This document shows, one piece after another, positions 1 to 59,680 of a DNA stretch of 64,000 nucleotides. Origin of the DNA: an uncultured delta proteobacterium (GTDB lineage Bacteria; Desulfobacterota; Syntrophia; Syntrophales; Fen-1087); the NCBI GenBank assembly GCA_963708515.1, contig CAVPSX010000012.1, forward strand, positions 341,247 through 405,246. Direction: 5' to 3'. Position 1 is the first letter of the stretch; each line of letters begins with the position of its first letter. A program made the translations under genes and the position numbers. Under the pieces are notes generated by a model. It searched no databases and had not been told where the DNA came from. It was given only the letters and a program-made list of their open reading frames with translations.

Positions 1-41
1 GCCGCGGAGGCCATTTATTGAAAGCATCTTTAAGGTTTTTT

Positions 42-1307
42 ATGCAACCCATCACTGCGGTAAGAGGGTTCAAGGATATCCTGCCTGAAGAAACGGGCAG
101 GTGGCAGTTTATTGAACGCCGGGCACGCGAGGTTTTTGCCGCTTTCGGTTTCCGGGAAATCAGAGTCCCGATTCTCGAAAAGACAGACCTGTTCACGCGC
201 GGAATCGGCGATACCACCGATATCGTTGAGAAAGAAATGTATACGTTTCTCGACCGGGGCGAGGAATCCCTGACGCTGCGGCCGGAGGCGACGGCCTCCG
301 TCATCCGCGCTTATCTGGAGCACAGCCTGCATGCAGTGGATCCCGTCGCCAAGCTTTATACGATGGGTCCCATGTTCCGGCGGGAACGACCGCAGAAAGG
401 CCGATTCCGGCAGTTTCATCAGATCAATGCGGAGCTGCTGGGACTTGACGATCCGAGGACGGATGCGGAAGTCATGCTCATGCTGATTCATTTCCTGAAA
501 TGCGTCGGCTTGTCGGAACCGGCCCTGGAAATCAACACGCTGGGCTGCTTTGACTGCCGCCCCGCCTTCCGGGAAGCCATCACGGGCTTTCTGAAAGGAA
601 AAGAAGGTCAGCTCTGCGATGACTGCCGGCGGCGTATCCATACCAACCCGCTGCGTGTTTTCGACTGTAAAAATGAGGGTTGCGCCGATGTGATCCACGA
701 GGCCCCCCGTCTTATCGCGTACATCTGCGATGCCTGCCGGGATCATTTTGAGCAGGTCCAGTCCAGCCTGAATCTTTTCAACCTGTCATTTGTGATCAAT
801 TCGCTGATGGTGCGCGGGCTTGATTACTATACGAGAACGGCATTTGAAGTGACGACTCAGTCTCTGGGGGCGCAGAATGCCATCGCGGGGGGCGGACGTT
901 ATGACGGGCTGGTCGGGGATCTCGGCGGACCGGATATCCCCGGCATTGGATTCGCGGTCGGCTTTGAGCGGCTGGTCGCCCTGCTCCCTGCGGATGCCGC
1001 ATCGTTCCATCAGAATCCTGATCTTTTTATTGCCGCCCTGGGCCCGGATGCCCAGAAGTATGCATTCGAGCTCTGCAACAGGCTCCGCATGAAGGGAATA
1101 TACACGGAAATGGATTATCTCGGCAAAAGCCTGAAAAGCCAGATGAAACGGGCCGACAAGCTCAAGTGCCAGCACGCGCTGATCGTGGGTGACCGCGAGT
1201 TGTCAACGGGCCGGCTGGAACTCAGAAATATGGAAACGAGCGCACAGGAAACCATCGATCTGGACGAAATCGAAAACATAATCGAAGCCAATATCAAAGC
1301 GAGGTAA
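42..1307 (+). CDS. hisS: Histidine--tRNA ligase
   Basis: The N-terminus reads MQPITAVRGFKDILPEE, with class II motifs (FRQFHQINAELLG; GGGRYDGL). The ORF track begins at TTG 18, but ATG 42 matches the canonical HisS N-terminus. Confidence 0.93.
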   Translation: MQPITAVRGFKDILPEETGRWQFIERRAREVFAAFGFREIRVPILEKTDLFTRGIGDTTDIVEKEMYTFLDRGEESLTLRPEATASVIRAYLEHSLHAVDPVAKLYTMGPMFRRERPQKGRFRQFHQINAELLGLDDPRTDAEVMLMLIHFLKCVGLSEPALEINTLGCFDCRPAFREAITGFLKGKEGQLCDDCRRRIHTNPLRVFDCKNEGCADVIHEAPRLIAYICDACRDHFEQVQSSLNLFNLSFVINSLMVRGLDYYTRTAFEVTTQSLGAQNAIAGGGRYDGLVGDLGGPDIPGIGFAVGFERLVALLPADAASFHQNPDLFIAALGPDAQKYAFELCNRLRMKGIYTEMDYLGKSLKSQMKRADKLKCQHALIVGDRELSTGRLELRNMETSAQETIDLDEIENIIEANIKAR

Positions 1308-1315
1308 ACTTTTAA

Positions 1316-3094
1316 GTGTCAGAATTTATTACCGTAAAGAAAAGAACCCATTACTGTGGCGTTCTTCGGGCGGCCGATGCCGGCAAGACGGTCATCCTGA
1401 TGGGCTGGGTGCAGCGCCGCCGGGACCACGGCGGCGTCATCTTTGTTGATTTGAGAGACCGAGAAGGCCTGATCCAGGTCGTCTTCAACCCGGAACTCAA
1501 CCCGGCCGTTCATCAGGAGGCGCATCGCATCCGGAGTGAATATGTCCTGGCCGTCCAGGGCAAGGTTCGCAAAAGACCGGAAGGCATGGAGAATCCGGAC
1601 CTGTCAACCGGCCAGATCGAGGTGATGATCGATGACCTGGAAATTCTCAATGAATCAAAAACGCCTCCGTTTGTCCTCGATGCGGAGGAAGAGATTTCCG
1701 AGAATGTCCGTTTGAAATACCGGTATCTGGACTTGAGACGCCCGGAGATTCAAAAAAAGATCATCCTGCGCAGCCAGGCCGCGACGGCCACGAGGGAATA
1801 TTTTCATGGCCAGGGATTCATCGAAATCGAAACGCCTTTTCTGACCAAGAGCACGCCGGAAGGGGCGCGGGATTATCTTGTCCCGAGCCGCATCCATCAA
1901 GGCATGTTCTACGCGCTGCCGCAATCTCCCCAGCTCTTCAAGCAATTGCTGATGGTGTCGGGATTTGACCGCTATTACCAGATCGTCAAATGCTTCCGCG
2001 ATGAAGACCTGCGGGCGGATCGTCAGCCCGAATTTACCCAGGTCGATTGCGAAATGTCTTTTATCGATGAGAACGATATCATCACCGTCATGGAGGGGTA
2101 CATGGCGCACCTGTTCCGGAGCTGCCTTGGTTTGACCCTGAAGACCCCCTTCCCCAGGATGGCCTATCGGGACGCCATGGAGTGTTTCGGAAAGGACAAC
2201 CCGGATACGCGCTTTGCCATGGAATTGAAGGACCTGACGGACATCGTGAAGGACTCCAAGTTTACGCTCTTTCAGGAAGTTGCCGGCGGCGGCGGCGTCA
2301 TCAAGGCACTTAAGATTGAAGACGGCAGAAAGCTCTCGCGCAAGGATCTGGATGGTCTCAAGGATTACGTGGCCACTTATGGCGCCAGGGGACTGGCCTG
2401 GGCGCGTGTCAATCCGGACGGATGGACCTCGCCGATTTTCAAATATCTCAAGCCGCTCGAAGTCGAGAAGATCAATGCGCGGCTCGAGGTTCAGGAAGGG
2501 GACCTGATGGTTTTCGTAGCGGATAAGCCGGGGATTGTACACGATTCTCTCGGCAATCTGAGAATCCACCTGGCCAGACAGCTGAACCTTATTGATCCGG
2601 CGGCCTTCGCCTTCACCTGGGTCACGGAATTTCCGCTGATGGAATACAGCGACGCGGATAAACGATTCGTTTCCATGCACCATCCTTTCACTTCTCCCGT
2701 GATGGCGGATATTGGGTTTCTCGAAGCAGATCCCGGCCGGGTCAGGGCCAGGGCTTATGATCTTATCCTCAACGGATCGGAAATCGGCGGCGGCAGCATC
2801 CGGATTCATTCGCAAAAGGTGCAGGCCATGATCTTCAAGGCTCTCGGACTCGGAGAGGATGAGGCGCGGACAAAGTTCGGTTTTCTGCTGGATGCCCTGG
2901 AATATGGTACGCCTCCCCACGGCGGCATTGCCTTCGGTTTCGATCGCCTGATCATGTTGATGGCCGGAGCGGATTCAATCCGGGATGTCATCGCCTTTCC
3001 AAAAACACAGAAGGCCGCCTGCCTGCTGATGGATGCCCCCTCAAAGGTCAGCATCGAACAATTACTGGAGCTTTCACTGAAAGTTGTTCAATAA
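1316..3094 (+). CDS. aspS: Aspartate--tRNA ligase
   Basis: 592 aa with a GTG start preceded by GAGG. It has an OB-fold N-terminus, class II motifs ([16 protein letters not shown]; [18 protein letters not shown]; GGGSIRIH; [13 protein letters not shown]) and a bacterial-type insertion domain. Confidence 0.95.
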
Positions 3095-3180
3095 TAATGT
3101 CGGGCATGGAAGCCATTTTTCTATTGACATGGGGAAGTTAAAATGCCCTCTTTTGTTTACCGAAAATATGGAGCATGAAA

Positions 3181-5070
3181 ATGGCCAAATGGAACAAGAA
3201 CAAAAAAGTACTGGACCATGAGCATTCCCGTTTCTGGCAGTACGATCTGAAGGATATCGATCAGCCGAACCTGCAGAAGGATGTGTTTCCCTATGATGAG
3301 GTCAGCCGCATCGACTTCGATCATAAACTCATTCCTATTAATCCACCCGATGAAATCTTCATCACAGACACCACTTTCCGGGACGGTCAGCAGGCGCGGC
3401 CCCCGTATACGGTCAAACAGATCGTTGATTTATATACGTTCATGAGCAAATTGGGCGGTGATAACGGCGTGATCCGCCAGACGGAATTCTTCCTCTACAG
3501 CCAGAAGGACAAGGAGGCTGTCACCAGATGCCTGAGCCTGGGCTTGAGGTATCCGGAGGTGACCGGCTGGATCCGATCCACGCGGGAGGATGTAACTCTC
3601 GTCAAGGAGGCCGGCCTCAAGGAAACGGGCATTCTGACCTCCGTATCCGACTATCACATTTTCCTGAAGTTGAATCAGTCAAGGCGGCAGGTCATGGAGG
3701 ATTATCTCGATACGGTCCGCTCCATTCTTGATGCCGGGATCATTCCGCGCTGTCACTTCGAAGACGTTACGCGGGCCGACATTTACGGTTTTTGCATTCC
3801 CTTCGCCATTGAACTCATGAAGCTGTGCGCGGAAAGCGGCGTCGATATCAAGATCAGGCTCTGCGATACGATGGGATATGGCGTGACCTACCCGGGGGCG
3901 TCCCTGCCGCGCAGCGTTGATAAAATAATCCGCGCATTAATCGAGGAGGCGGGCGTTCCGGGTCATCTGTTGGAATGGCACGGCCACAACGACTTTCACA
4001 AGGCCCTGATCAACGCCACGAGCGCCTGGCTTTACGGCTGCAGCGGAGCCAACGGCACGCTGCTTGGTCTCGGGGAGCGGACCGGAAATCCGGCAGTGGA
4101 AGCCCTCATCATTGAGTACATCGGTCTTAAAGGTTCAACAAACGGCGTGGACACGACCGTCATCACGGACATTGCCCGCTACTTTGAGAAAGAGATCGGC
4201 TTCAAGATTCCCGCCAATTATCCTTTCGTGGGTGCGGATTTCAACGTGACGCGCGCAGGCATCCATGCCGACGGGCTCATCAAGTGCGAAGAGATCTATA
4301 ATATCTTTGATACCACCAAAATCCTGAAAAGACCCATCATACCCATGGTAACCGACAAATCCGGAAAGGCGGGCATTGCCTACTGGATCAACGGCCATCT
4401 GGGGTTGGCAGGCGATCATATGGTCGATAAGCGTCACCCCGGCATCTCAAAGATCCACAAATGGATCACCGAAGAGTATGAGTCCGGACGGGTAACGGGC
4501 ATTTCCAATGAAGAGATGGAAAAGCGCGTCCGTAAATATCTGCCCGAACTGTTCATGTCCAACCTGGAGAAGATCAAGCACATGGCTGCGCAAGCCGCCA
4601 TGACCGTGGTGAAGCAGGTCATCGAACACCCTGTCATGCGCAGTATGCAGCCGGATCTTCAGGAGCCCATCATGCTGCAGTGCATCGAGGAGAACCCGTC
4701 GATCCAATTTTCCTATGTTGTTGATATGAATGGCAAAAAAACAACGAGGAATATCACCAACATCGCCGACCGGGCGAAATATGAAAATTATGGCATTGGC
4801 ACCGATCAGTCGGATCGCGAGTGGTTTATCAAACCCCTGCAGACCGGCAAAATCCATGTTACCAATTTTTACATTTCCAAAATGACAGGCGCCCTTTGCA
4901 TCACCGTCTCCGCGCCCATTATGGACGACAAGGATGAAATGGTGGGTATCTTCGGCGTGGACATTAAGTTTGAGGACTGGGTGAAACGCGTCGAGGATAT
5001 TGCAGAAGCGACGCATATCGCCCTGCGGGAAGAGTATGAAAACAAGGAAAAGCGGGATCGCTGGTTGTAA
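3181..5070 (+). CDS. DRE-TIM metallolyase of the isopropylmalate/homocitrate/Re-citrate synthase family (Re-citrate-synthase-like), with a C-terminal Cache/PDC-like domain
   Basis: The catalytic motif is ITDTTFRDGQQ (F and Q where IPMS/HCS have L and E), with HGHNDF and GERTGN motifs and a long N-terminal extension. The C-terminal ~100 aa (DREWFIKPLQTGKIHVTNFYISKMTGALCITVSAPIMDDKDEMVGIFGVDIKFED) matches the Cache/PDC sensor signature. Start ATG 3181 has better GGAG spacing than ATG 3175. Confidence 0.7.
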   Translation: MAKWNKNKKVLDHEHSRFWQYDLKDIDQPNLQKDVFPYDEVSRIDFDHKLIPINPPDEIFITDTTFRDGQQARPPYTVKQIVDLYTFMSKLGGDNGVIRQTEFFLYSQKDKEAVTRCLSLGLRYPEVTGWIRSTREDVTLVKEAGLKETGILTSVSDYHIFLKLNQSRRQVMEDYLDTVRSILDAGIIPRCHFEDVTRADIYGFCIPFAIELMKLCAESGVDIKIRLCDTMGYGVTYPGASLPRSVDKIIRALIEEAGVPGHLLEWHGHNDFHKALINATSAWLYGCSGANGTLLGLGERTGNPAVEALIIEYIGLKGSTNGVDTTVITDIARYFEKEIGFKIPANYPFVGADFNVTRAGIHADGLIKCEEIYNIFDTTKILKRPIIPMVTDKSGKAGIAYWINGHLGLAGDHMVDKRHPGISKIHKWITEEYESGRVTGISNEEMEKRVRKYLPELFMSNLEKIKHMAAQAAMTVVKQVIEHPVMRSMQPDLQEPIMLQCIEENPSIQFSYVVDMNGKKTTRNITNIADRAKYENYGIGTDQSDREWFIKPLQTGKIHVTNFYISKMTGALCITVSAPIMDDKDEMVGIFGVDIKFEDWVKRVEDIAEATHIALREEYENKEKRDRWL

Positions 5071-18229: not shown

Positions 18230-20932
18230 TTATGCCAGAGGTCGGCCTCCATTGAGCTTCTCATAGATCCGGATGTATTCGGCAATCATGCTGCTGAGGT
18301 CGTACCGCTGCCTGGCTTCTTTCATGATACGTTTCATCTGGGTCTCCCGGATATCATCGGGTTTGCGGTGAAAGGCCAGGCTTTTTTCCAGGGCATACCA
18401 GAGGCCGCCGGCGTCGAAGTCCCGAAAGAGAAATCCGTTGCCCACATCCTGCGGGGCGCCGTCCGCTTTCAGCCGCAGTTCCCGTATTTTATCATGGTAG
18501 CCGCCCGTGTCGCGGTTCGTGGCCGTGGCCCCGAAGAGATTGCCAACCTGGTCGATCTGACCGCAGGGTTCGTAGAGTGAAGCTCCGAAGACATCGCTGG
18601 CCGCGGCATAGCCCAGCATGGCCAGCGGTTCGCTGAAGGGCTGGTATGTAATTTTTCCCCGGGAGCTGTATGCGATGCGTCCGAGAATATCCGCATGCGT
18701 CCGGTCGTTGCCGACGCCGTCGGCGACAATGGCAATTTGAACATTTTCGTAAATGTTAATAAAATGCCCGCACACCGCCTCCAACAGCTCGACGCCTTTC
18801 TGAAACGGATCCAGCCGGGAAGGCCAGAAAAACAGGATGGCATGGGGGTTCGCATACAGGCCCGTTTTTTGCTGAAAGGCCACGAGATTCTCGCGCTTGG
18901 CCTCCAGCAGGGGATCATCCGGGCCGTATCTTCTGGCGAGATCATCACGGTTTTCCGGATACATACTGGAGGCTGGCGCGTTGATAATGGACCATGCGGA
19001 GTCGTGGTAATACTTGGCCTTGACTTCATTGCGGACACTTGCGGGCACCAGCGGACGATCCAGAAAATAGTCGTCCACCACTTCCCGCAGGAATCGCTCA
19101 CCCACAAAGTTGATGATCGTGGCATTTTTGATGGCCGTCGCCTGACAGTCAATGCATGCTTTGCCGTAAGCCTCCGAATAGTAAAGATTATTTTCAAAGT
19201 TTCGCAGATTAACCCCGCTTAGCATCTCTATCGGCAAATCAGCCGTGAAAACATTGTGAACCGTATGCAGCACAGGCAGGTCGGTGGACTTTGCATAGGC
19301 CGTGATCGCTCCGCCGGCCATCCAGTCGTGGCTGTGGACAATCAGCCTTCCCTCGTGTTTTGCACGAACCATTTTTATGATGTTATTTACAATTTCGCGC
19401 TGAAATTCGGCAGCTGTGGCAATCGGATCGCAGGAATAGGCGCTCAGATTCTCGGCAAAGATCGCCGAGCTGACAAGATGGATATTTTCTGAATCAATCT
19501 TGTAGCGGATCGCGCGCCAGCCCCGTTCATCGAGATCGCTCTCGCGTTGAAACCGCCTCTTCAAATTCAGCGTGACCAGATGGACATCGATGCCCCTTTC
19601 CCACAGACCTTCACAGAGTGCCGAAACGACCTCTCCCTGACCGCCGCTCTTCCCGGAAATGTATCTGGCCAGGGCGCCCATATCGTCCGGCAGTCTCCCC
19701 GTTTCCGGCGTGATCATCATGAGGGCCGTCCGCTCCTGTTTCCGTACGATCTCAAAACGCCTGATGGCCCAGTCCAGATAATCAATCTTGCGCGTCAGAA
19801 TATGCGAGGGCTGTGCGATAGAACCGCCATAGGGATTGAAATAAGCGTGGACAGCATGATCCTCTCCGATGCGTTCATGAATAAAATAAACATGGTCCGA
19901 TGTGGTCAGGTGCCGCCAGTTGGTCAGCAGATCCCCGCCGGCCCAGCGGGCATTCCGTTCCATGTTCTGAATGTCCTGAAAGAGTTCATACTGTGTCAGG
20001 GTGCCCAGCCAGCCGAAGGTATCCCGGCCGGCGTCAGCCCAGGAAGAGGTCGCCAGTCCGTGAATATCCAGTGTCGGACAATCGACATCCCTGAATTTTT
20101 CAGCAATCTCACTGGGGTTGGCGGCAACGATGTTCGCATGTCTGGCCAGGGCCTCCGGAAGTCCCCGCCAGAATTCGAAAATACCCTTGTCTTCCCAGAT
20201 GTGTTCACCGATATGTTCATAGTCGTAACCCAGCAGGACAGCCTCGCCGTCAATTTTGGCGATAAAGGCGGCGTACTGCTCCGGGGCGATAGGCTGATGC
20301 GGAAAACGGAAAGCTACGTCATCGCTGAGTTCGCGATTCCGGGGAATGACAGTCAAATGACTGTCCTTTGCCCTGAAGACGGCATTCGGCGAAACAGTGC
20401 GATCGGTCTGCGTGAACATGTCGTTCCGCTTTTCACACAGAATGGAAAGATAACCCATATCGGCCACGACATCGGCGATATGGTTGTTGAACATGAGCTC
20501 AGTATTTCGGAAAGATGTCGGGAAAATGCCGAAAAGCTTCCTGATCTTGTCCCGGTGCAGGGAGACCTGGTCACGGAATTCCTGCTTATGGGGATCCTCG
20601 AAAAGACTGCTTAGCGAGTGGTAGTAAGTCTCATCGAGGTATTCCACCTGGTTGTGCTCCCGGCCGGCGTCGAGCAGTTCCTGGAGGGCGCGGATGACGT
20701 CCGGCTGATAGATTTCCGCTTGCTCCAGAAACACACCGGACATGCTCAGGGTGATTTTGAACCCTTTGTTTTGCGCGATAAGCTCCGTAAACATGCGGGT
20801 TGCCGGCAGGTAGCATTTGTCTGATACCTTCAGAAATATCTCCCGGTTCGACGTGTTCCATAGGAACTTGTCCCGGTCCGGATGGAGGCGGAAAGGTTGA
20901 TGAAGCTGAAAGTAGAACGTGACCAGCGGCAT
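18230..20932 (-). CDS. Fusion protein: N-terminal glycoside hydrolase family 57 domain plus C-terminal glycogen-synthase-like glycosyltransferase
   Basis: The N-terminus MPLVTFYFQLHQPFRLHP is typical of GH57. The C-terminal half has GlgA-like motifs (SGKSGGQGEVVSAL; HSHDWMAGG; PSRLDPFQKG; ASLYEPCGQIDQVG...TGGYHD). Confidence 0.8.
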   Translation of the reverse strand: MPLVTFYFQLHQPFRLHPDRDKFLWNTSNREIFLKVSDKCYLPATRMFTELIAQNKGFKITLSMSGVFLEQAEIYQPDVIRALQELLDAGREHNQVEYLDETYYHSLSSLFEDPHKQEFRDQVSLHRDKIRKLFGIFPTSFRNTELMFNNHIADVVADMGYLSILCEKRNDMFTQTDRTVSPNAVFRAKDSHLTVIPRNRELSDDVAFRFPHQPIAPEQYAAFIAKIDGEAVLLGYDYEHIGEHIWEDKGIFEFWRGLPEALARHANIVAANPSEIAEKFRDVDCPTLDIHGLATSSWADAGRDTFGWLGTLTQYELFQDIQNMERNARWAGGDLLTNWRHLTTSDHVYFIHERIGEDHAVHAYFNPYGGSIAQPSHILTRKIDYLDWAIRRFEIVRKQERTALMMITPETGRLPDDMGALARYISGKSGGQGEVVSALCEGLWERGIDVHLVTLNLKRRFQRESDLDERGWRAIRYKIDSENIHLVSSAIFAENLSAYSCDPIATAAEFQREIVNNIIKMVRAKHEGRLIVHSHDWMAGGAITAYAKSTDLPVLHTVHNVFTADLPIEMLSGVNLRNFENNLYYSEAYGKACIDCQATAIKNATIINFVGERFLREVVDDYFLDRPLVPASVRNEVKAKYYHDSAWSIINAPASSMYPENRDDLARRYGPDDPLLEAKRENLVAFQQKTGLYANPHAILFFWPSRLDPFQKGVELLEAVCGHFINIYENVQIAIVADGVGNDRTHADILGRIAYSSRGKITYQPFSEPLAMLGYAAASDVFGASLYEPCGQIDQVGNLFGATATNRDTGGYHDKIRELRLKADGAPQDVGNGFLFRDFDAGGLWYALEKSLAFHRKPDDIRETQMKRIMKEARQRYDLSSMIAEYIRIYEKLNGGRPLA

Positions 20933-26764: not shown

Positions 26765-27766
26765 ATGGAAAATAAAACCGCTGGCATGATTGAAACAAAG
26801 ATGATCGCCAGGCTCGTGAATCGCTATCAGTTTTCACTGGCCATTGAAGAGGCTTATGCCGTGACGGCTCAGAGCCTGGGCACATTGCTGTCCGAAGACA
26901 GCGGCATCCTGTATCTGAAAGACGCTCGCCTGGATCTCTATCATCCCATCGCTACATGGGGAAAGACGGCGGAGCCGCCTAAATCCATCAGCAGCCAGGA
27001 TTGCTGGGCTCTGAGGCGCGGCCGCAGGCACAAGGTCGTTGCCGGTTCCGATGACATCCGCTGCAGTCACATGATCTCGCCGCCTGCCGACAGTTCTTCC
27101 CTGTGTGTGCCCATTATGACTTTCGGTGAACCCCTGGGTATGCTACATTTCTCGTCACGGCAGGACAATCATTGTTTCCCGGAAAAACAACAGACCGTAG
27201 GACTCATCGCCGATTTGCTCGCCATGGCCATCGTCAATATCCGCCTGCGCGACCGCATTCAGGACATGGTTGAACGCGATTATCTGACAGGGCTTTACAA
27301 TCGCAAGCATGCAGAGGAACACTTCAGCCGGCTTCTGAAAACAGCCTCCCGCGAAAACAAATCCATCGGCCTGATCATGATGGATATCGATCACTTCGGT
27401 TATTTCACAGAAAACTATGGTTATGGGACGGCGCATGCCGTTCTGCGTGACATAGGCGCCTTTTTGAACGAATACCTGCACAGTGAAGATCTGCCCTGCA
27501 AATTCGGCGGTGATGAGTTCCTGCTGATCCTTCCTGGGAATTCCCTGGAAGCCTCCCGAAAACGGGCCGAGCATATTTGTGATTTGCTAAAAGACCGGGC
27601 CCAGTACGAAGGCCATCGGCACATGCGACGAATTACGCTTTCGATCGGCGTGGCCGCCTTTCCCGATCATGGCACGACAACGGGCGACCTGATTCAGAGC
27701 GTCATCAACGCGGTCAAGCGGGCCAAGGAAGCCGGCCGCGATCGGGTTGCGGTTGCAGAGGAATAA
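26765..27766 (+). CDS. GAF-domain diguanylate cyclase (GGDEF)
   Basis: N-terminal GAF-like domain. The GGDEF domain has DYLTGLYNR, an intact GGDEF active site (CKFGGDEFLLIL), and RxxD absent or unclear. Confidence 0.88.
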   Translation: MENKTAGMIETKMIARLVNRYQFSLAIEEAYAVTAQSLGTLLSEDSGILYLKDARLDLYHPIATWGKTAEPPKSISSQDCWALRRGRRHKVVAGSDDIRCSHMISPPADSSSLCVPIMTFGEPLGMLHFSSRQDNHCFPEKQQTVGLIADLLAMAIVNIRLRDRIQDMVERDYLTGLYNRKHAEEHFSRLLKTASRENKSIGLIMMDIDHFGYFTENYGYGTAHAVLRDIGAFLNEYLHSEDLPCKFGGDEFLLILPGNSLEASRKRAEHICDLLKDRAQYEGHRHMRRITLSIGVAAFPDHGTTTGDLIQSVINAVKRAKEAGRDRVAVAEE

Positions 27767-28718: not shown

Positions 28719-28849
28719 CAGGGATGCCTCCTTTTCAGGTGTTTGTCTTCTTATGGCAAAGAAACTCTGCCTGATTGTGTGCACCCTCTTCAATTTAAAA
28801 TCCATTTCGGACAGATGTGAACGAAAATAATGGTCCAAAAGGGGGTAAA

Positions 28850-29719
28850 ATGTGCGCCATCAGTCAGGTTATTCTTCATCATGCCTGCCGCATTGCCGGT
28901 GAGATCGGTGCAAAGGCCGTTCTTGTTTATGCCGCCGTAGCTGACGATCTTCCTGTTGCCGACGACCCCGGCCTATGCATGAATATTATTATCGTCACCA
29001 GGGGGGATGAGGAAATCCCATCGAAATTCAAGAATTGCGGCGTCCAGATTCAAGTCCCCAACGTTAATCTCACGCGTGTCGGACAAATTAAAATCGCGAT
29101 TACGAAGGGCATTGCATTAGGCCTTTTCACACAGGGAGACAAACTGGTGTGCGTAAGCGGCGTCCCGCGGTTTGGCTATGTCGATAGTATTTTCGTCATT
29201 GACGTAGGTAAGGAATTTGAAATTCTGGTTTCCGGCAACTTCAGAGATCTGGCCCAGGGGGTTTATCCGGAAGTTTTCGGCGCGGTTATAAATCTGGCCA
29301 TCGAACTGGCTGCTCAGGGCCGGGAAGGCCGGAAGGTGGGAACGATTTTTGTTCTGGGAGACCATGAAAAGGTCATGCAATTGTCCCGGCAGATGATTAT
29401 CAATCCTTTCATGGGATACACAGACGAGCAGCGAAACATTCTCAATCCGGAACTCAAAGAGACCATCAAGGAGTTTTCCGCCATTGATGGCTCCTTTATC
29501 GTCAAAGACAACGGCACGATTGTTACCGCCGGCAGGCATCTGAATGCCGCAATGGACAGCAGGGATTTTCCCCAGGGACTTGGCAGCCGGCATATCGCCG
29601 CCGCCGGGATCACGAGTATTACCAATGCCATTGCCGTCGTTTTATCCGAATCGACGGGAAACGTCAGCGTTTTTAAAGACGGTAAAATCCTCGTCAGCAT
29701 CGAAAAACCAATCGACTAA
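28850..29719 (+). CDS. DisA_N/DAC-domain protein (diadenylate-cyclase-like, CdaZ/DacZ-type architecture)
   Basis: The C-terminal DAC signature is DGSFIV...[14 protein letters not shown]...[14 protein letters not shown]. The N-terminal alpha/beta domain resembles a pyruvate-kinase C-terminal-like domain. A GGGGGT RBS precedes ATG 28850. Confidence 0.72.
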
Positions 29720-29730
29720 CAGGAGGCATT

Positions 29731-32310
29731 ATGAGGTTCGATAAATTTACCCTAAGAGTTCAGGAGGCGTTGCAAGCCGCGCAGGCTCTGGCGTCACAGC
29801 AGGGACACCAGGGGATTGAACCGGAGCATCTCCTGACGGCATTTCTTGAGCAACCGGAGGGGATTACAGGCGTCATCCTGAAAAAACTGGGCGCCGATCC
29901 CGGTCAGATTACCTCAGAACTCAAGAAAGCGCTTGGCAAACAACCCCGTGTCGAAGGCGCCGGCCTGGGGCAGCCGGGTATGACGGCGGGTTTGAATCGT
30001 GTTCTCGATCTGGCCATGACCGAAGCGGCTCGCCTGCGGGATGAATATGTCAGTGCCGAGCACGTCCTGATCGTTATTTCAGATGACAAGGATAGCCCCG
30101 CTGCTAGGATTCTGCGTGCAGCCGGTGTGACCAGGGACGGCATCTTCCGGGTTCTGGTCGATATTCGGGGGAATCAGCGAATCACCGATCCCAACCCCGA
30201 GGACAAATATCAGGCATTAAAGCGTTATGCAAGAGATTTCAATGAATTGGCCCGGAAAGGAACATTTGATCCGGTCATCGGCCGGGATGAGGAAATCCGG
30301 CGCGTCATGCAGGTCCTTTCCCGCAGGACAAAGAATAATCCGGCCCTGATCGGAGAACCTGGCGTTGGCAAAACGGCCATTGTGGAGGGGCTGGCTCAGA
30401 GAATCGTTAATGGCGACGTTCCGGAGAATCTCAAGAACAAACGTGTTGTGGCCCTCGATATCGGCGCCCTGGTGGCAGGCGCCAAGTACCGGGGTGAATT
30501 CGAAGACCGCCTGAAGGCCGTCCTTAAAGAAGTGACGGACGCCCAGGGGGAAATCATCCTGTTTATTGATGAGATTCACACGGTGGTCGGAGCCGGCGCT
30601 GCCGAAGGGTCGGTTGACGCCTCCAACATGCTGAAACCTGCCCTTGCACGGGGTGAATTGCGCTGCGTCGGCGCAACGACCCTCAACGAGTACCGGAAGT
30701 ATATTGAAAAGGATCCTGCTCTGGAGCGGCGTTTTCAGCCCATTGTGGTCAAGGAACCCTCTGTCGAGGATACGATCGCTATTCTTCGCGGCCTGAAGGA
30801 GCGCTACGAGGTTCATCACGGGGTAAGGATTAAGGATTCTGCCATCATTGCCGCAGCTACCCTCTCGAATCGCTATATCTCCGACCGTTTTCTTCCCGAT
30901 AAAGCTGTCGATCTGATTGACGAATCGGCTTCTCGCCTGAGGATCGAACTGGACAGCATGCCCGCCGAAATAGACGTCATTGACCGGAAAATCATCCAGA
31001 TGGAAATAGAAAAGCAGTCGCTCATCAAGGAAACGGATAAGACCTCCTGTCGAGAGACGCAGCAAGCTTGATCACGAACTGGCAGAACTCAGAGAATCCA
31101 TGGACCACATGAAACGCCAATGGACTATCCGAAAAGGAGGCGATAAAAAAAATTCAGGCGGTCAAGAGCCGCATTGAAGTCCTGCAAAACGGAGGAAATA
31201 AATGCCCAGCGGGAAGGGAATCTGGCTCGGGCAGCGGAGCTACGCTACGGTCAACTTGTTGAATTGAATAAAGAACTGGAAGCAGAACAGCTTAAGCTGA
31301 TGGAGGCCCAAAAGGATGAAAGAATGCTCAAGGAAGAGGTGGATGCAGAGGATGTGGCCGATGTCGTGGCCAACTGGACCGGCATCCCCGTGGCCCGTAT
31401 GCTGGAGAGCGATGTCCAGAAGCTGATCCACATGGAGGAAAGGCTCAAAGAGCGCGTGGTCGGCCAGGCAGAGGGAATCGCAGCCGTTTCCAGTGCGTTG
31501 CGCAGAGCCCGGTCCGGGCTGCAGGACCCGAACCGCCCCATCGGTTCATTTATCTTTTTGGGTCCCACAGGCGTTGGAAAAACAGAACTCGCCCGGGCGC
31601 TTGCCGAATTCATGTTTGACTCTGAACAGGCCATGATCCGGATCGATATGTCGGAATATCATGGAAAAACACGCCGTGGCCCGCCTGATCGGGGCGCCTC
31701 CGGGATATGTCGGCTATGATGAGGGCGGATATCTGACCGAAACGGTCCGACGAAAGCCCTATGCGGTCATTCTGTTTGACGAGATCGAAAAAGCCCACCA
31801 TGACGTATTCAACATTCTGCTGCAGATCCTCGACGACGGACGCCTGACCGACGGTCACGGACGGACGGTGGATTTCAAACATGCCATTGTGATCATGACC
31901 TCCAACATTGGCAGCCACTTCATGCAGGACACGGCCATCGATGACGAGGAAAGAAGAGCACGAACCATGGAAATGTTGCGGGCCGGTTTCAAGCCGGAAT
32001 TTCTCAACCGGATCGATGATATCATCACCTTCAGAGCCCTGGACATGGACGACATTGATCGGATATCTGGATCATCCAGTTGGATCTGATCCAGAAACGG
32101 TTGTCGGAGCGGAAAATAACGCTGACATTGACAGAGAAGGCAAAAAAATATATAGCGAAAATCGCCTATAGCCCGATTTATGGAGCAAGACCGTTAAAAC
32201 GGGCATTGCAGAAGATGATTCTGGATGACCTGTCCATGCTGATGTTGGATGGTACATTCGCTGACGGGGATAGCATCCGGGTTGATCTGTCCAAAAAGCG
32301 GTGTCCTTAA
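29731..32310 (+). pseudogene. clpB: Chaperone ClpB, interrupted by about 5 frameshifts in this sequence
   Basis: All ClpB segments are present in order but spread over four ORFs plus a short unlisted bridging frame: the N-domain, NBD1 ([15 protein letters not shown]), the M-domain, NBD2 ([15 protein letters not shown]; MSEY|[19 protein letters not shown]) and the C-terminus (YGARPLKRALQ). Frame changes occur near 31048, 31130, 31187, 31660 and 32065. Confidence 0.9.
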
Positions 32311-33753: not shown

Positions 33754-33828
33754 TGGGGCGTCGTCAAGCGGTAAGACACAAGGTTTTGGTCCTTGCATTC
33801 GGGGGTTCGAATCCTCCCGCCCCAGCCA
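33754..33828 (+). tRNA. tRNA-Gln (anticodon UUG), CCA encoded
   Basis: Acceptor stem TGGGGCG/CGCCCCA, anticodon stem CAAGG/CCTTG with loop TTTTGGT, T-arm GGGGGTTCGAATCCTCC, and discriminator G plus CCA. Confidence 0.95.
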
Positions 33829-33862: not shown

Positions 33863-34805
33863 ATGCTTGAAAGAATCCGAGTTTTTTCGGGAAATTCAAA
33901 TGTAGTCCTGGCGGAAAAGATCTGCGAGCAATCTGGGCGTTCCCCTGGGAAAAGCCAGCGTGACCACCTTCAGCGACGGCGAGACCCGGGTGGAAATCAA
34001 CGAAAATGTCAGAGGCATGGATGTTTTCATTATCCAGTCCAGCTGCCCGCCCGTCAATGTCACGCTCATGGAACTGCTGATCATGATCGATGCCATGAAG
34101 CGGGCATCGGCAGACCGCATCACGGCCGTCATTCCCTATTACGGTTATGCCCGCCAGGATCGAAAAGTGGCGCCGCGGGCTCCCATTACGGCAAAGCTGA
34201 TCGCCGACCTGATCACGACGGCCGGCGCCCATCGCGTTCTGTCGATGGACCTTCACGCCGGTCAGATCCAGGGATTCTTCAACATTCCCGTGGATAATCT
34301 TTTCGCCACGCCGGTCCTTTTAGAATACATGAAAAAGAATTTTCAAAATGATATCGTTATCGTTTCTCCCGATACCGGTGGCGTGGAGCGGGCACGGGCC
34401 TTTGCATCACGCCTCGGGGCGAATCTTGCCATCATCGACAAACGCCGCGAAGGGCCGAACGAAGCACAGGTCATGAATATCATCGGCCATGTCAGAGATA
34501 AAAAGGTCATCATTCTGGATGACATGATCGATACGGCGGGAACGGTTGTCAGTGCCGTCTCCGCGTTGAAAGAGGCCGGCGCCGTTGAGGTATCCGTCTG
34601 CGCCACGCATCCGGTGCTTTCCGGACCGGCCATTGAAAGGCTTGAAAAATCCGACATCAAAGAGGTGATTGTAACGGACACGATTCCCATGAATGATGCG
34701 GCGCTGGCCTGCAAATGTATCAAGGTGCTCTCTGTTGCTTCATTGCTCAGCGAAGCGGTGAGGCGAATTTACTATAATGATTCCATAAGCTCATTATTCA
34801 TATAG
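33863..34805 (+). pseudogene. prs: Ribose-phosphate pyrophosphokinase, one frameshift near 33931
   Basis: The N-terminus [23 protein letters not shown] is in one frame and (LGVPLGKAS)[27 protein letters not shown]... continues in the next. Removing one base at about 33931 restores a canonical Prs. Confidence 0.9.
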
Positions 34806-42331: not shown

Positions 42332-44224
42332 ATGGGCCATGAAGCCTATCCATTTCTACAAAATCTGCCTCCGTTTTCTTTTCTGCCCGATGCGGAAGTT
42401 GAAAAGATCGTCGCGGACCTCGTCGCCGTGAACCATCCAAAGGACGTCTTTTTGCTCATTCAGGGCCGATCAAAAGTCGAACACCTCCATATTATAAAAA
42501 AGGGGGCTGTCGAACGGTATTACAGGGAGAGAAACGAGGAATTGATGCGCGCGCGGTTGCGGGAAAGAGACTTCTTCGGGGGTATCTCCATGCTTTTGCA
42601 CGACGGCATCTCCGTGTGTATGTTCAGAACGACCGAAGATTCCGAATTGTATTTGCTCCCCAAACAGAGGTTTCTCGATCTCTGTTCACGCTATCCGGTC
42701 TTTTCCGATTTTTTTACAGACATGCTGGGCAAGTGGATGCTCGATAAATCCTATGCAATGCCCATCGCCAAAACCATGCATCCGAAAGAAGAATTGCCGC
42801 AAATCTTCAACCAGAGCGTCGAAAACATATTTTCGAGAAAACTGGTTTCTTGCGATACCCATACGTCCATTCAGGAAGCCGCAGCCATGATGGGCAACAA
42901 CCGATGCAGCTCCATCCTTGTCAAGGAACCCCATGGCGATTTTACGGGCATCATGACCGACCGGGATTTGAGAAATAAAGTAATCATCCAGGCGACCTGC
43001 GACATGACCAGGACGGTTTCCCAAATCATGTCCTCCCCCTTGAGCACCGTCCCGGCCGCGGCCCCGGTCTCGGATGCGCTCATGATCATGATGATGAAAG
43101 ATATCAAACACCTTGCGGTCACGGACGCCGATGAAAAGGTGATTGGAATTGTCACCAACAAGGACATCCTCGGGGCCCATGGACAGTCGCCTTTTTTCCT
43201 GCTGCGGGAGATTCATGCAGCGGTGAGCCTTGAGGAGATAACGGACAAGCAGAGCCGGTTGCCCGGACTGATTCAGAGCCTCATCAGCAGCGGCGCCAAG
43301 GCCATGAATGTGGCCCGCATGGTATCCGTCATTTCAGATGCCATCCTGAACAGACTCATCGGCTTTGCAATCGCTGAGTTGGGCCCGCCGCCGGTCCGGT
43401 TTGCATTTATGATCGTGGGCAGCGAGGGCAGGCGGGAGCAGACGCTCAAGACAGACCAGGACAATGCCATCGTTTATGAAGATCCCCCGGGGGAAACGGA
43501 AGAGGCCGTCAGAGGCTACTTTCTGGCATTCGGAGAAAAGGTCTGCAACTGGCTGGATCAGGTGGGATATACCTTCTGCAACGGGGGCGTCATGGCAAAA
43601 AACCCCCAATGGTGCCAGCCCCTGTCCGTCTGGAAAAAATATTTTTCCACCTGGATCGGAACCGCGGAACCGGTGGCCCTGATGCAGTCGAGCATCTTCT
43701 TCGATTTCCGCTGCGGCTATGGCGATTTGGCCATCATCGACGAACTGCGCCAACATCTTTTTCATTCCCTTGGCGAGCATCCCAACTTTTTCCGATATCT
43801 GGCGGAAACCACTCTTGAACGCAAACCGCCGCTGGGCCTTTTCCGGACTTTTATCGTCGAATCGAAGGGCGAGCACCGCGATACCCTCGATGTGAAGAGC
43901 CCCATGATCACGATTGTCAACTATACCCGTCTCTATGCTCTCAGGAACGGCATTGAGGAAACGAATACCCAGGAAAGGATGTACCAGCTCTTCCTCAAGA
44001 AACGCCTCTCCTGGGAGGATTATCATGACTTCGAGCAGGCCTACAGTTTTCTCATGCAGCTGAGACTGGCCCGGCAGCTGACCGCACTGATCAGGGAAAA
44101 CGCGAAGCCTGATAATTATATCAATCCGAACAAGCTCTCACGCCTGGAGCAGACCATGCTCAAGGAAATCTTTAAGCGGATTGAAAAGTATCAGGAAAAG
44201 ATGGTCTTTGACTTCTGGAAATGA
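42332..44224 (+). CDS. cNMP-binding, tandem-CBS, DUF294 putative nucleotidyltransferase with a DUF294_C substrate-binding domain
   Basis: N-terminal cyclic-nucleotide-binding fold (FFGGISML), two CBS motifs, the NTase motif IVGSEGRREQTLKTDQDNAIV, and a helical C-terminal domain. Confidence 0.85.
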   Translation: MGHEAYPFLQNLPPFSFLPDAEVEKIVADLVAVNHPKDVFLLIQGRSKVEHLHIIKKGAVERYYRERNEELMRARLRERDFFGGISMLLHDGISVCMFRTTEDSELYLLPKQRFLDLCSRYPVFSDFFTDMLGKWMLDKSYAMPIAKTMHPKEELPQIFNQSVENIFSRKLVSCDTHTSIQEAAAMMGNNRCSSILVKEPHGDFTGIMTDRDLRNKVIIQATCDMTRTVSQIMSSPLSTVPAAAPVSDALMIMMMKDIKHLAVTDADEKVIGIVTNKDILGAHGQSPFFLLREIHAAVSLEEITDKQSRLPGLIQSLISSGAKAMNVARMVSVISDAILNRLIGFAIAELGPPPVRFAFMIVGSEGRREQTLKTDQDNAIVYEDPPGETEEAVRGYFLAFGEKVCNWLDQVGYTFCNGGVMAKNPQWCQPLSVWKKYFSTWIGTAEPVALMQSSIFFDFRCGYGDLAIIDELRQHLFHSLGEHPNFFRYLAETTLERKPPLGLFRTFIVESKGEHRDTLDVKSPMITIVNYTRLYALRNGIEETNTQERMYQLFLKKRLSWEDYHDFEQAYSFLMQLRLARQLTALIRENAKPDNYINPNKLSRLEQTMLKEIFKRIEKYQEKMVFDFWK

Positions 44225-44899: not shown

Positions 44900-46568
44900 T
44901 TATAGCACAGCGAAGATGCAGAAAGCAAGCATAATCAGGCCGATGATGGCCGGGCCCACATCGCTGGCATAACGCGTGCTGTCCTTTCTGATCGCGTGGT
45001 CAGGCCAGCCGTGCATGAACTCCACCATTTTATCCGTCTTCTCGCGCGGAATCTTGGCGGCCAAAGCCGGAATCCGGTTGGTGATCATGGAAACGAAGAT
45101 CATCACGACAAAGGAAATCGGCACCGAAAAGACGCCCGGGAACGGCGTCGGCCCGTAGGGTGCAGCGCTTAGAACCGGACTCCAGGTGAAGGACGGGTGG
45201 GCGAATTTCGCATTGAAGAACAGAGCGAAAAACCCTCCGACCAGCATGCCGGCGATGACGCCGTACTTGTTCCCTCCCTTCCACCATATCCCCATGATCA
45301 GCGGGGCCGTAAAGACCGAAGCGGAAAGAATGATGGCCCAGATGACGCTGGCCAGTGCGAACGTGGGCGGGTTGATGGTCATGAACATGATGACCACGCC
45401 CGAGATGAAGATCGTGATGGGGCCCAGGATCTTCTTCTGCTTTTCCGTGAGTTCCCTGATGCCGCCGATAATGTCGTGGGCGATGCCCGTGCCGATGACC
45501 ATCAATGCCCCGGCGATCGTGGACATGCCCGCGGCGATGGCGCCGGCCAGGATCAGGGCCAGGGCCCAGTTGCCGACGAAGGCATCAGACAGGATGAAGA
45601 GCAGCTTGTCCGCCTGCACGGCCTTGATCGCCAGGCCCTTCGTCTGCGTGTAGATGACGCCCGCAAAACCGGCCGTGAAGGTCAGCACGTTGACGCAACC
45701 GATCATGAGTATGCCCAGCAGGAAGCCCATGCGGCCTTCGCGGGTGTTTTTCGCCGAAGAAATGCGGGACAGGTAATGGGGCACCGACATCGTGCCGAAC
45801 AATCATGGAGAACAGCACACCGATGTACCATTTGGGGCTCGCGTCATACAGGATCGAGAAGAACTTGGGGAACGCCTTGAGCATTTCAGGCGTCATGTTG
45901 CCGTATCCCCACATCGGCAGCCACCATAAGCTCGCGCCCAGGGCCTTGGCGATGGCCATGACCGGAAACAAAAGGAAGGCCACGCACATGAATCCCTGGA
46001 AGGCCTGGTTCCAGGTCACGCCGTACATTCCGCCGAACGTCACATAGAGGACGACGATGATGCCGCCGAGGAACAGGGCGGGTACGTAGGAGATGCCGAA
46101 GAGCAGCTCAAAGATGTGGGCAATGCCCTTCATCTGGCTGACGGAATACATGATCATGATGAAGATCATGAAGACGACCGCCACCAGACGGCCCGCGTTA
46201 GTCTGGAAACGCGTGAAAATGTATCCGGCCGCCGTATAGGTCCCGAGGCGGCGGATGGGGCCGGAAAAAAGGAAGATCATGATGCCGAAGCCGATCATCC
46301 AGGCCTGGGACATGATGGCAAGCAATGACTGGATGCCCCAGATAAAGGCCGTAAATCCGATGAACGTGGCCAGGCTCAGGTAGGCCGACACGATGGCAAA
46401 GGCGTTGACGACGGGTCCGACGGACGCGCCGGCCATGTAATAGTCGCCGCTGCTCTTCGTGGCGCGCTGCGCCATGACGCCCACAATGATAAACAAGACG
46501 ATGGACCCTAAAACGCTGATGAGGCCCGGTATGTACAACCCTTCTCTTTGGAAGAATTCCATGGTCAC
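44900..46568 (-). pseudogene. Sodium:solute symporter (SSS) large subunit, one frameshift near 45801
   Basis: Two ORFs (46568-45585 and 45802-44900) together give a roughly 555-aa SSS protein. The sense reading ...IGVLFSMI | FGTMSVPHYLSRISSAKNTREGRMGFLLG is restored by removing one base. Confidence 0.85.
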
Positions 46569-58135: not shown

Positions 58136-59680
58136 TCAGGCCCCTTGGCATGCCTGGTGGGCGGGCCTGAGCAAATCATAGATGGTTTTAACCGGATTAA
58201 ATGTTTCGAGGGGAACATCAATAAAGACCGTAATCCAGGAAGCCATGGCGCCATTCCAGAAACCCGGAAGTTCCAGCGCTCGCAGATCCCTGCCCTTCTC
58301 TGATTTTTTCACAATGGAAAAAGCCTGCTGATCGATAAACTTGTGCAGATCATATTTTTGACCCCGGTAATCCCTGATCCCGCAGACCAGATCCACCGGA
58401 TTGAAATGGGTAGCTTGAGACCAAACCCCCCGCTGGGCCTGGGAGTCTGCATTAACCTGATGCTCTTCTATGATCTGAAGCGAGTGCGTTCCATCTGCCT
58501 CATCTACCCAGAACGGCCCCCCACCGGGCTCTCCCTCATTTTTAACCATACCGCAAACGCGAATCGGCCGATTTAATTTTGCCAGGATCATGGCCCGTTT
58601 GTCCGCAAAAGACAGACCTGGAAAACCATGCGGGAATATAATAGAAAGCCTTTCCCTGCAAAACGACAGAATCTGCTCCATGTCGCCCTCATCAATGAGA
58701 CCGGTTGCAAGCCTTTGCACACACTCGAATATCCGCTCCTGAAGCGTAACCAGATAACCACCGAGGATTTTCTTGTAAAGAACCGTCGGAGCCCTGAGGT
58801 GATCGGGCACAACGTTGTCGATATTTTTCACAAAGACGATATCCCCTTCATCAAGCTGATTCAGGTTGGAGAGGAGTGCACCGTGCCCGCCCGGCCTCAG
58901 AACGAGGTTCCCTGCCTCATCAATGAAGGGGCGGTTTTGCATATCAACGGCGATGGTATCCGTGCTCTTGCCCTGGACCGATACCGCCATATCATAGTGG
59001 ACATGGTATTTTTGTTCATAATGCTTTCGGATACCGGAAAGGTAACATGCGATGTCATGCCGGTGCGCTTCGGAAACTGTAAAGTGGACACGGCAGACGC
59101 AGTTGCGATCCTGCGCATAAAGAGCTGCCTCAACGAGATGTTCCTCCAGGGCCGTACGGCTGCCCCAAGGGTATCTGTGAAACTTCAGCAGGGCTTTTGG
59201 AAGATGGCCGTAATTCAGACCGCTGGCCGTGAGGATTTCAGTCAGGATGTCTCGACAGCGCCCCTGCGCCGTCCATTCTGCGAGGCGGTTACCTTTTCGG
59301 GAGATCAAATCATCGAGATCATCATAAAAGGCAAATTTCTCTATTTCCGTGGCAAAGGCCTGCGCTGCAGCGTCTGTGTCAAAACTGTCGTTTTCGAGAC
59401 GGCGAAACCATTCCCTGAACATGCGACTGGCGGCCCCGGATGCCGGAACAAACTTCATGAATCGGCCGCAGGCCGCTTCACATTCGTGACGGCTGACATA
59501 AGCCTCAGTATCCCCGGCGGAAATGGATAAAATGCCGTCCCCGACGGTGCATGGCCGGTTCAGCCGGATCGGTGCGGCGCCGCTTTTGAACCGTTCAATC
59601 TGTTCCAAAACCTGTATTTCGGTCAGGCCGTGCGCCCTGATCTGGCAGATATGGTCAGCGGAAAACAAGTTATCAGGCAT
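58136..59680 (-). CDS. DUF4301-family protein (nucleotide-sugar pyrophosphorylase-like fold suspected)
   Basis: The N-terminus (GLTEIQVLEQIERFKSGAAPIRLNRPCTVGDGIL) and KFVPASGAASRMF are characteristic of DUF4301, as far as I recall. Confidence 0.6.
   Translation of the reverse strand: MPDNLFSADHICQIRAHGLTEIQVLEQIERFKSGAAPIRLNRPCTVGDGILSISAGDTEAYVSRHECEAACGRFMKFVPASGAASRMFREWFRRLENDSFDTDAAAQAFATEIEKFAFYDDLDDLISRKGNRLAEWTAQGRCRDILTEILTASGLNYGHLPKALLKFHRYPWGSRTALEEHLVEAALYAQDRNCVCRVHFTVSEAHRHDIACYLSGIRKHYEQKYHVHYDMAVSVQGKSTDTIAVDMQNRPFIDEAGNLVLRPGGHGALLSNLNQLDEGDIVFVKNIDNVVPDHLRAPTVLYKKILGGYLVTLQERIFECVQRLATGLIDEGDMEQILSFCRERLSIIFPHGFPGLSFADKRAMILAKLNRPIRVCGMVKNEGEPGGGPFWVDEADGTHSLQIIEEHQVNADSQAQRGVWSQATHFNPVDLVCGIRDYRGQKYDLHKFIDQQAFSIVKKSEKGRDLRALELPGFWNGAMASWITVFIDVPLETFNPVKTIYDLLRPAHQACQGA

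Follow-up and report, generated by a model that had tools for sequence, protein, structure and literature searches.

In anaerobes such as Clostridium kluyveri and Syntrophus aciditrophicus, Re-citrate synthase opens the oxidative branch of the tricarboxylic acid (TCA) cycle, which leads to 2-oxoglutarate and glutamate. The enzymes of these two organisms (CKL_0973 and SYN_02536, respectively) are the closest described systems to the protein reported here. LeuA and CimA belong to the same DRE-TIM superfamily, and there a C-terminal add-on that follows the post-barrel subdomain, LeuA_dimer, binds the end product of the pathway. We analysed a stretch of 64,000 nucleotides (the window) from an uncultured delta proteobacterium of the order Syntrophales (assembly GCA_963708515.1, contig CAVPSX010000012.1, positions 341,247 to 405,246). 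The gene at 3181..5070 on the plus strand (629 aa plus stop) very probably encodes a Re-citrate synthase, in which an HMGL-like/DRE-TIM catalytic domain is followed by a C-terminal domain with a predicted PDC/Cache fold. Residue numbers below follow the 631-aa open reading frame (ORF) that begins at an in-frame alternative ATG, and are higher by two than those of the 629-aa protein.

SYN_02536 comes from the same order, though from a different species, and falls in the same clade as the window protein (bootstrap 96). The two proteins are collinear end to end and share the N-terminal extension, the HMGL barrel, the post-barrel subdomain, the PDC module, the pocket residues and the C-terminal helix. 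Their identity was 75.6% over residues 3-631, essentially the full length (blastp), compared with 49% for CKL_0973 over window residues 22-466 and 28-29% for the second type of Re-citrate synthase (Dehalococcoides, Heliomicrobium); these values are lower bounds, as the sequences of the characterised enzymes, taken from Table S1 in the supplement of PMC12016533, were machine-read with small optical character recognition errors. The tails of SYN_02536 and the window protein match residue for residue in the conserved stretches. Since the characterised SYN_02536 has the same tail, a Re-citrate synthase of the HMGL plus PDC architecture has been purified and assayed before. CKL_0973 has the FRDGQQ and EWHGHND signatures and the N-terminal extension and belongs to the family clade (bootstrap 100), but its sequence ends with the LPE-type motif and lacks the PDC module. 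CKL_0973 stands for a short form of the family, as opposed to the long form with HMGL and PDC domains.

The enzyme family and the domain composition were thus already known, and Pfam, InterPro and NCBI tag the tail as a PDC sensor domain. With the architecture present in SYN_02536 and widespread elsewhere, the fusion is less novel than a first-pass annotation of this DNA had implied. What is new is that the long form prevails among the closest species genomes sampled, that its cytoplasmic PDC subtype is common to chemoreceptors, and that the pocket of this domain is near-invariant. In the literature searched, which lacked most subscription-journal papers, we found no paper on the PDC domain of SYN_02536, nor on the function of the PDC tail, the fusion or the regulation of Re-citrate synthase.

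The catalytic half has the features of the Re-citrate synthase family, namely an HMGL-like barrel, the FRDGQQ and EWHGHND signatures and an N-terminal extension of about 45-55 aa. The barrel, a DRE-TIM metallolyase domain, spans residues 62-335 (3358..4179, +; Pfam PF00682, E 1e-28). It includes the substrate/metal motif DTTFRDGQQ (residues 65-73; 3367..3393, +), a family-specific variant of D-T-T-L-R-D-G-E-Q, and the metal-binding histidine motif EWHGHND (residues 267-273; 3973..3993, +), both invariant in the family alignment; ITDTTFRD and EWHGHND served as family patterns in the search of species genomes. The family-specific extension that precedes the barrel (residues 1-57; 3175..3345, +) is common to the window protein and CKL_0973, whose residue 5 pairs with window residue 22 (blastp), and is missing from LeuA, NifV and the HM1_2993 type. 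Its pairwise identity among long forms is 37%. After the barrel comes a helical subdomain (residues 336-455; 4180..4539, +), with 58% pairwise identity among long forms and a weak HCS_D2 match in one homolog.

We bootstrapped a neighbour-joining tree built from the catalytic region of 85 sequences (358 columns). In it, a clade of CKL_0973- and SYN_02536-type enzymes stood apart from LeuA, NifV and the second type of Re-citrate synthase with a bootstrap of 100/100, and the window protein grouped with SYN_02536 and other Syntrophales at 96/100. The enzyme might instead be another 2-oxo-acid:acetyl-CoA condensing enzyme, that is, a homocitrate, citramalate or isopropylmalate synthase, as could be read from the JGI label 'isopropylmalate/homocitrate/citramalate synthase' on many homologs and from the best sequence relatives in the PDB, which are citramalate, isopropylmalate and homocitrate synthases (E 1e-21 to 1e-9). 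Those matches, however, are only about 25-30% identical. Moreover, the NCBIfam equivalog models for isopropylmalate, homocitrate and citramalate synthases scored 57-141 bits against cutoffs above 400 (the top model, TIGR02090, reached 141 bits against a cutoff of 485, the others also falling far below theirs), and Pfam detected no LeuA_dimer domain in the window protein. Set beside roughly 76% identity to a characterised Re-citrate synthase and clade bootstraps of 96-100, a different specificity is very improbable. Judged from its sequence, the catalytic half is, with high confidence, a Re-citrate synthase of the C. kluyveri/S. aciditrophicus type (EC 2.3.3.3). The first-pass annotation had arrived at this branch, rather than at isopropylmalate or homocitrate synthases, from the DTTFRDGQQ variant and the long N-terminal extension. 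Both are present in the ORF, as is the C-terminal string that it quoted, and the tree placed the catalytic domain outside the isopropylmalate and citramalate synthase clades.

The ORF is intact, without interruption, over 3175..5070 (+), which gives 631 aa from ATG 3175. A Shine-Dalgarno-like GGAG, read directly from the sequence at 3170..3173 (+), is spaced 7 nt from ATG 3181 and 1 nt from ATG 3175. Nearly all close homologs have 629 aa, and the 629-aa homologs start with MAKWN. Because of the GGAG spacing and the MAKWN start, ATG 3181, the start originally annotated, is very likely the true one. The protein has a calculated mass of 71.9 kDa. No transmembrane (TM) helix or signal peptide was found in it; the maximum Kyte-Doolittle mean over 19 residues was 1.31, and the N-terminus is strongly hydrophilic. 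From the lack of a hydrophobic segment and the hydrophilic N-terminus the protein is predicted to be soluble and cytoplasmic, as proposed earlier.

The conserved motif LPE(L/Y)F at residues ~457-461 marks the point at which the two forms part: CKL_0973 and all other short forms stop 8-22 residues past it, whereas the window protein continues with an extra module of residues ~463-631. The module is entered through the junction LPELFxS and long N-terminal helices (residues 456-505; 4540..4689, +), delimited by AlphaFold2 and by conservation, with P457, F460 and S462 invariant or almost so. The PDC/Cache beta-sheet core follows (residues 506-602; 4690..4980, +), as found by Pfam, AlphaFold2 and Foldseek, and the protein ends in an amphipathic helix (residues 603-631; 4981..5067, +), which is limited to Syntrophales and a few other lineages; most long forms stop at about residue 605. 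The Pfam family MCP-like_PDC_1 (PF22673) matched residues 503-601; its score of 50.4 bits (53.5 with the tail alone) compares with a gathering cutoff of 27. The score for dCache_1 was 32.7-36 bits, below the cutoff of 45, and only the first-PDC part of that profile was covered (positions 62-153 of 240).

An AlphaFold2 model of residues 455-631, built from a 58-sequence alignment spanning 18-90% identity, had a mean predicted local distance difference test score (pLDDT) of 89.3 and a predicted template modelling score (pTM) of 0.81. In it, long helices at the N-terminus lead into a PAS-like antiparallel sheet that is flanked by helices. The elements of the model are the helices H9-29, H32-36 and H39-52 (pLDDT 87-97), the strand E56-63, the helices H76-82 and H95-103, the strands E120-129 and E135-144, and the terminal helix H145-176 (pLDDT 68-77). 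The module is thus a single PDC domain of about 150-175 aa with one sheet, and not a double-PDC architecture. Foldseek against the PDB gave 147 matches at E<=1e-3, and the top 50 listed were all PDC/Cache-type sensor domains. KinD (including its pyruvate complex), Tlp3, WalK, Mlp37, PctA, DctB and the cytoplasmic C-terminal domain of YkuI were matched with probability 1.0, and the LeuA regulatory domain was not among the PDB matches listed. As modelled, then, the tail is a PDC/Cache fold and not a LeuA-type regulatory domain, and here profile and structure searches bear out the earlier assignment. The window protein resembles LeuA and CimA in its superfamily and in having a C-terminal add-on after the post-barrel subdomain, but the add-on has the PDC fold rather than the beta-beta-beta-alpha repeats of LeuA_dimer, and the catalytic domains are only about 25-30% identical. 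A full-length AlphaFold model was set aside for interdomain geometry and for fold searches, as its mean pLDDT was 62.3 and its pTM 0.41; the catalytic half was poorly modelled because the full-length multiple sequence alignment was shallow.

Cache domains are extracellular in 78% of cases, with only the small YkuI_C and Diacid_rec families principally intracellular, and the partners found in the 2016 census were signal-transduction outputs only (Upadhyay et al. 2016, PMC4822843). The module described here departs from the typical Cache domain in that it is not extracytoplasmic between two TM helices and has no signalling output domain, its partner being an enzyme. Its best structural matches, KinD of Bacillus subtilis (PDB 4jgo/4jgp) and the dCache_1 sensors PctA, Tlp3 and Mlp37 (Foldseek E 5e-8 to 1e-5), are extracellular double-PDC domains that lie between TM helices and feed kinases or chemoreceptors, unlike the single cytoplasmic PDC of the window protein. 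YkuI_C (PDB 2bas/2w27), matched both by Foldseek and by profile, is a cytoplasmic single PDC like that of the window; however, YkuI_C and MCP-type PDC domains are joined to signalling domains (EAL, MCP), and the window module to a metabolic enzyme.

When 1.84 billion cluster representatives were searched exhaustively with the module (phmmer), only 460 matches reached E<=1e-3. Besides fragments of Re-citrate synthases, the matches examined were chemoreceptors in which the PDC domain lies C-terminal to the MCP signalling domain and is therefore cytoplasmic; some of these domains also match YkuI_C. At 26-36% identity they are the nearest non-enzyme relatives of the module. This class of chemoreceptors with a single cytoplasmic C-terminal PDC includes P0168, P0175, P0187, P0195, P0207, P0224, P0231, P0264 and about 40 more. 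The signature R-x-W-F...Y-x-S-x-x-[TS]...D is almost invariant in them and identical to that of the Re-citrate synthase module. We aligned 53 C-terminal PDC domains from the phmmer matches, most of them from chemoreceptors (at least P0157 is a Re-citrate synthase fragment, as are, by their Desulfovibrio-type sequence, P0158 and P0171). W, S, T or S, and D were present in all 53, R and Y in 50/53 each, and F in 47/53. By sequence, the module is best classed as a cytoplasmic PDC subtype, whose other hosts are the C-terminal PDC domains of chemoreceptors and YkuI_C-like domains, and not as a displaced extracellular domain. The first-pass statement that Cache domains are normally extracellular, in chemoreceptors and kinases, thus holds for the superfamily but not for this subtype, which is cytoplasmic in its other hosts as well. 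A cytoplasmic location, although unusual for the superfamily, is normal here; the unusual feature is a central metabolic enzyme as partner. Literature searches on KinD ligand contacts and cytoplasmic Cache domains returned nothing relevant in the literature covered, and no ligand was found there for the chemoreceptors with a C-terminal PDC.

Alignment to KinD and PctA, together with conservation, outlines a putative ligand pocket made of R548, W550, F551, Y566, S568, T571 and D596 (4816..4962, +). When a profile of 32 diverse modules was aligned to PDB sequences, R548 fell on KinD R131 (ADRSFF in the wild-type chain, ADASFF in the R131A chain), and R548, W550, F551, Y566 and D596 fell on PctA R126, W128, Y129, Y144 and D173. 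In the AA_motif of PctA, Y121, R126 and W128 touch the ligand carboxyl, Y144 and D173 touch the amino group, 13-17 residues separate the two parts, and R126A and D173A cripple binding (PMC8915833). Four of the five motif positions are present in the window module (R548, W550, Y566 and D596). The spacing from W to Y is 16, and T543 takes the place of Y121. The presence of R and W suggests a carboxylate ligand, and that of D596 an amino group or another hydrogen-bond donor; by pathway logic we would infer glutamate, 2-oxoglutarate and pyruvate as candidates. Assignment of the module to the dCache_1AA amino-acid sensors was rejected, as Y121 is missing and the PDC is single.

The pocket is strongly conserved. 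In 59 long forms that are about 50% divergent within the module, W550, F551, S568 and D596 were present in every protein, R548 and T571 in 57/59 and Y566 in 50/59. The mean pairwise identity of long forms was 66% for the TIM barrel, 49% for the PDC core and 36% for the linker helices. These figures bear on the possibility that the module is purely structural, mediating a dimer or tetramer through its helices or stabilising the enzyme, with no physiological ligand. Such a role would fit the short forms, which are bona fide enzymes without the module, and the long N-terminal PDC helices (H9-52 of the model), which are of the type that mediates receptor dimerisation; the long S. aciditrophicus enzyme is also said to be a homotetramer. 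However, the best-conserved residues of the module are those aligned with the ligand contacts of KinD and PctA, the linker helices are its least conserved part, and the PDC domains of chemoreceptors, which are expected to sense, conserve this pocket too. A pocket that appears conserved above its scaffold and common to bona fide sensors is what a ligand-binding role predicts and a purely structural role does not, and we regard the latter as unlikely.

We therefore propose a ligand-binding role for the module, with the following scheme. A cytoplasmic DRE-TIM/HMGL enzyme, ortholog of SYN_02536, would condense acetyl-CoA with oxaloacetate on the Re face to give citrate, and a small carboxylate-bearing metabolite would bind the putative PDC pocket. 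Our best guesses are glutamate or another amino acid, and 2-oxoglutarate, pyruvate or another 2-oxo acid. The conformational change may travel via the long N-terminal PDC helix, which starts directly after LPELF, and modulate activity or oligomeric state. The module would then be a functional analogue of the LeuA/CimA feedback domain on an unrelated fold. The scheme builds on the family membership, PDC fold, cytoplasmic location, pocket conservation and distribution that we observed, and on the retention of the module in lineages of more than ten phyla, which we count in favour of a regulatory role; that a ligand binds, which one it is and that its binding affects catalysis are predictions. 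As a whole, a cytoplasmic Re-citrate synthase tuned allosterically by a carboxylate or amino-acid metabolite through its PDC domain seems to us somewhat probable. A further step, taken more tentatively and with less than even confidence, is that the PDC tail acts in many anaerobes as an intracellular metabolite sensor that gates the entry of acetyl-CoA into the oxidative TCA branch with no signalling domain in between, and that, through the sensor signature common to the enzyme and the cytoplasmic chemoreceptors, one metabolite (an amino acid or a 2-oxo or carboxylic acid) may control both carbon flux and metabolism-dependent taxis.

Several points weigh against allosteric control by the module. 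The short form of C. kluyveri (CKL_0973), anammox bacteria and clostridia lacks the module, and CKL_0973 is a functional enzyme; the module is therefore dispensable for catalysis. The full-length S. aciditrophicus enzyme is reportedly active without an added effector. The AA_motif is incomplete, with T543 for Y121 and F551 for Y129, so that an amino-acid ligand is not secured, and the full YRWYD motif is present in only 5/59 long forms, all from Desulfovibrionaceae. No TCA or glutamate genes were found in the window that could give a neighbour clue to the ligand, and the full-length model (pLDDT 62) is too poor to reveal a domain-domain interface.

A variant of the same idea is that the module senses a signal from the substrate side (pyruvate, oxaloacetate, aspartate or acetyl-CoA status) and works as a feed-forward activator of the enzyme rather than as an end-product feedback inhibitor. 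The closest solved homolog, KinD, was crystallised with pyruvate (PDB 4jgp), and its YSSRITG stretch is nearly identical to the aligned YtSRITG of the window; moreover, a central catabolic metabolite would be a plausible signal for the chemoreceptors that have this pocket. Gene order offers another argument, as aspS lies directly upstream of the Re-citrate synthase gene in 33/80 loci, about 25 of which also have hisS. However, essentially all these loci belong to Desulfobacterota-type lineages, and the order looks like vertically inherited synteny. In addition, R, W, Y and D make up four-fifths of the AA_motif, and D596 corresponds to the contact of PctA with an amino group, which a 2-oxo acid lacks. 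Feed-forward activation thus appears rather improbable. The aspS order was seen in the window (18-3094 with 3181-5070) and in loci L001-L049, and a synthetase of the Asp/Asn type lies upstream in a Spirochaetales genome too; aspartate and oxaloacetate are separated by a single transamination.

The long form of Re-citrate synthase, which carries the proposed sensor, is widely distributed. A database search returned at least 8000 relatives, of which the top 120 were all 615-651 aa long (almost all 629 aa) with PF00682 and PF22673, and in data with one genome per species at least 476 genomes encode a relative. Among the best 80 species loci about 60 had the long form and about 17 the short form, proportions that are not a census, as the ranking tilts towards relatives of the long-form query; Pfam scans of five diverse members bore out both architectures. 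Long forms in these 80 loci span more than ten phyla. Their hosts include Syntrophales and other Thermodesulfobacteriota, Syntrophorhabdus, Desulfomonilales, Desulfovibrio/Bilophila/Mailhella, Nitrospirae, Omnitrophota, Armatimonadota, Spirochaetales, Elusimicrobia, Lentisphaerae and Termititenax. Short forms were found in anammox Planctomycetota, clostridia, Elusimicrobia, Firestonebacteria, Endomicrobiales, Auribacterota and others. The closest species-level match to the window protein (94%) came from an uncultured Syntrophales metagenome-assembled genome (MAG; L001). NCBI names many full-length family members 'histone-lysine N-methyltransferase' and one 'triose-phosphate isomerase' (for example P0035, P0049, P0050 and P0100), which is propagated misannotation; tail fragments are named 'PDC sensor domain-containing protein', and JGI uses 'citrate (Re)-synthase' or the generic name for isopropylmalate, homocitrate and citramalate synthases.

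Such recurrence also bears on whether the two-domain ORF might be an assembly or gene-calling artefact that joins two genes. Other genes in the window are indeed frameshifted (clpB in four pieces and a split SSF symporter). However, the identical fusion recurs across thousands of independent sequences, at least 60 species genomes encode it, and the one PDC gene examined that seemed to stand alone proved to be a fused gene split by a frameshift. An artefact is hardly credible, and is effectively refuted by this recurrence in independent assemblies. The stand-alone PDC genes that appeared in the profile search were mostly fragments at contig ends; the case examined, P0314, lies on a long contig and was rejected as a stand-alone gene. 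At L081 2767-4654 the same enzyme is called as two genes, an HMGL protein of 413 aa and a PDC protein of 217 aa with an 8-nt overlap; we consider this an assembly frameshift rather than a natural stand-alone PDC, because uvrD is also split on the same contig.

The modules of the long forms share family-specific features, namely the junction motif, an IQF motif and the invariant residues F551, S568 and T571 (the last in 57/59 long forms), and are much closer to one another than to any other PDC. These features and the mutual closeness of the modules point to a single fusion origin. Neither the long nor the short forms were recovered as monophyletic (bootstrap 0/100 for each), and the backbone of the tree, with bootstraps below 50, gives no polarity for gain or loss of the module.

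As a whole, the window is part of a Syntrophales chromosome occupied by housekeeping genes, in the order hisS, aspS, the Re-citrate synthase gene, an SLT transglycosylase gene, rmuC, a multi-PAS hybrid kinase gene, uvrD and adk, among others. Elsewhere in the family, aconitase starts 3 nt downstream of a long-form gene in a Nitrospirae genome (L020 7797-8453), and a short-form gene of Kuenenia is followed by those for the beta and alpha subunits of succinyl-CoA synthetase, sucCD (L072 7418-9458). At the operon level, these neighbours connect the family with the TCA cycle. Promoter and terminator matches around the gene in the window were at chance level, and no Rfam element was found near it, a single tRNA at 33754-33825 (+) being the only Rfam match in the window.

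Further along the window, clpB (29731-32310, +) is broken into four ORFs in different frames, with Clp_N, AAA1 and the lid at 29731-31071, the start of AAA_2 at 31174-31719, the rest of AAA_2 at 31661-32089 and D2-small at 32080-32310, all on the plus strand; it is either a pseudogene or the product of assembly indel errors. A sodium:solute symporter (SSF) gene at 44900-46568 (-) is split into two overlapping ORFs that match profile positions 1-171 and 213-406, an apparent second frameshift. A diadenylate cyclase with DacZ_P and DAC domains, DacZ_P forming an N-terminal sensor, is encoded at 28817-29719 (+) and adjoins a GAF-GGDEF protein (26765-27766). Other products are a 900-aa protein in which a GH57 glycoside hydrolase is fused to a starch-synthase-like GT4/GT5 glycosyltransferase (18230-20932, -), a protein with cNMP-binding, CBS and DUF294 nucleotidyltransferase domains (42332-44224, +), and a 513-aa protein that is DUF4301 end to end (58136-59680, -; E 4e-201). 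In the ORF for phosphoribosyl pyrophosphate (PRPP) synthetase next to the tRNA gene (33960-34805, +), the N-terminal profile is matched only from position 30, so that the gene probably begins further upstream than the mechanically called ORF.

Many strict anaerobes, among them syntrophs, sulfate reducers and gut Desulfovibrio and Bilophila, enter glutamate biosynthesis through Re-citrate synthase. The textbook enzyme from C. kluyveri is the shorter form, and most family members in the closest species genomes sampled carry a conserved cytoplasmic PDC domain. Naming these proteins 'histone-lysine N-methyltransferase' hides a citrate synthase in metabolic reconstructions from MAGs. The identity of the enzyme itself is not new and the regulatory role is putative; for specialists in sensor domains the combination would be moderately surprising, and the hypothesis is open to direct test with SYN_02536, an enzyme that has already been expressed. 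If a metabolite does bind the module, the Cache/PDC superfamily would extend from signal transduction to direct enzyme allostery, and the enzyme would provide a way to approach what a whole class of cytoplasmic sensors in chemoreceptors binds.

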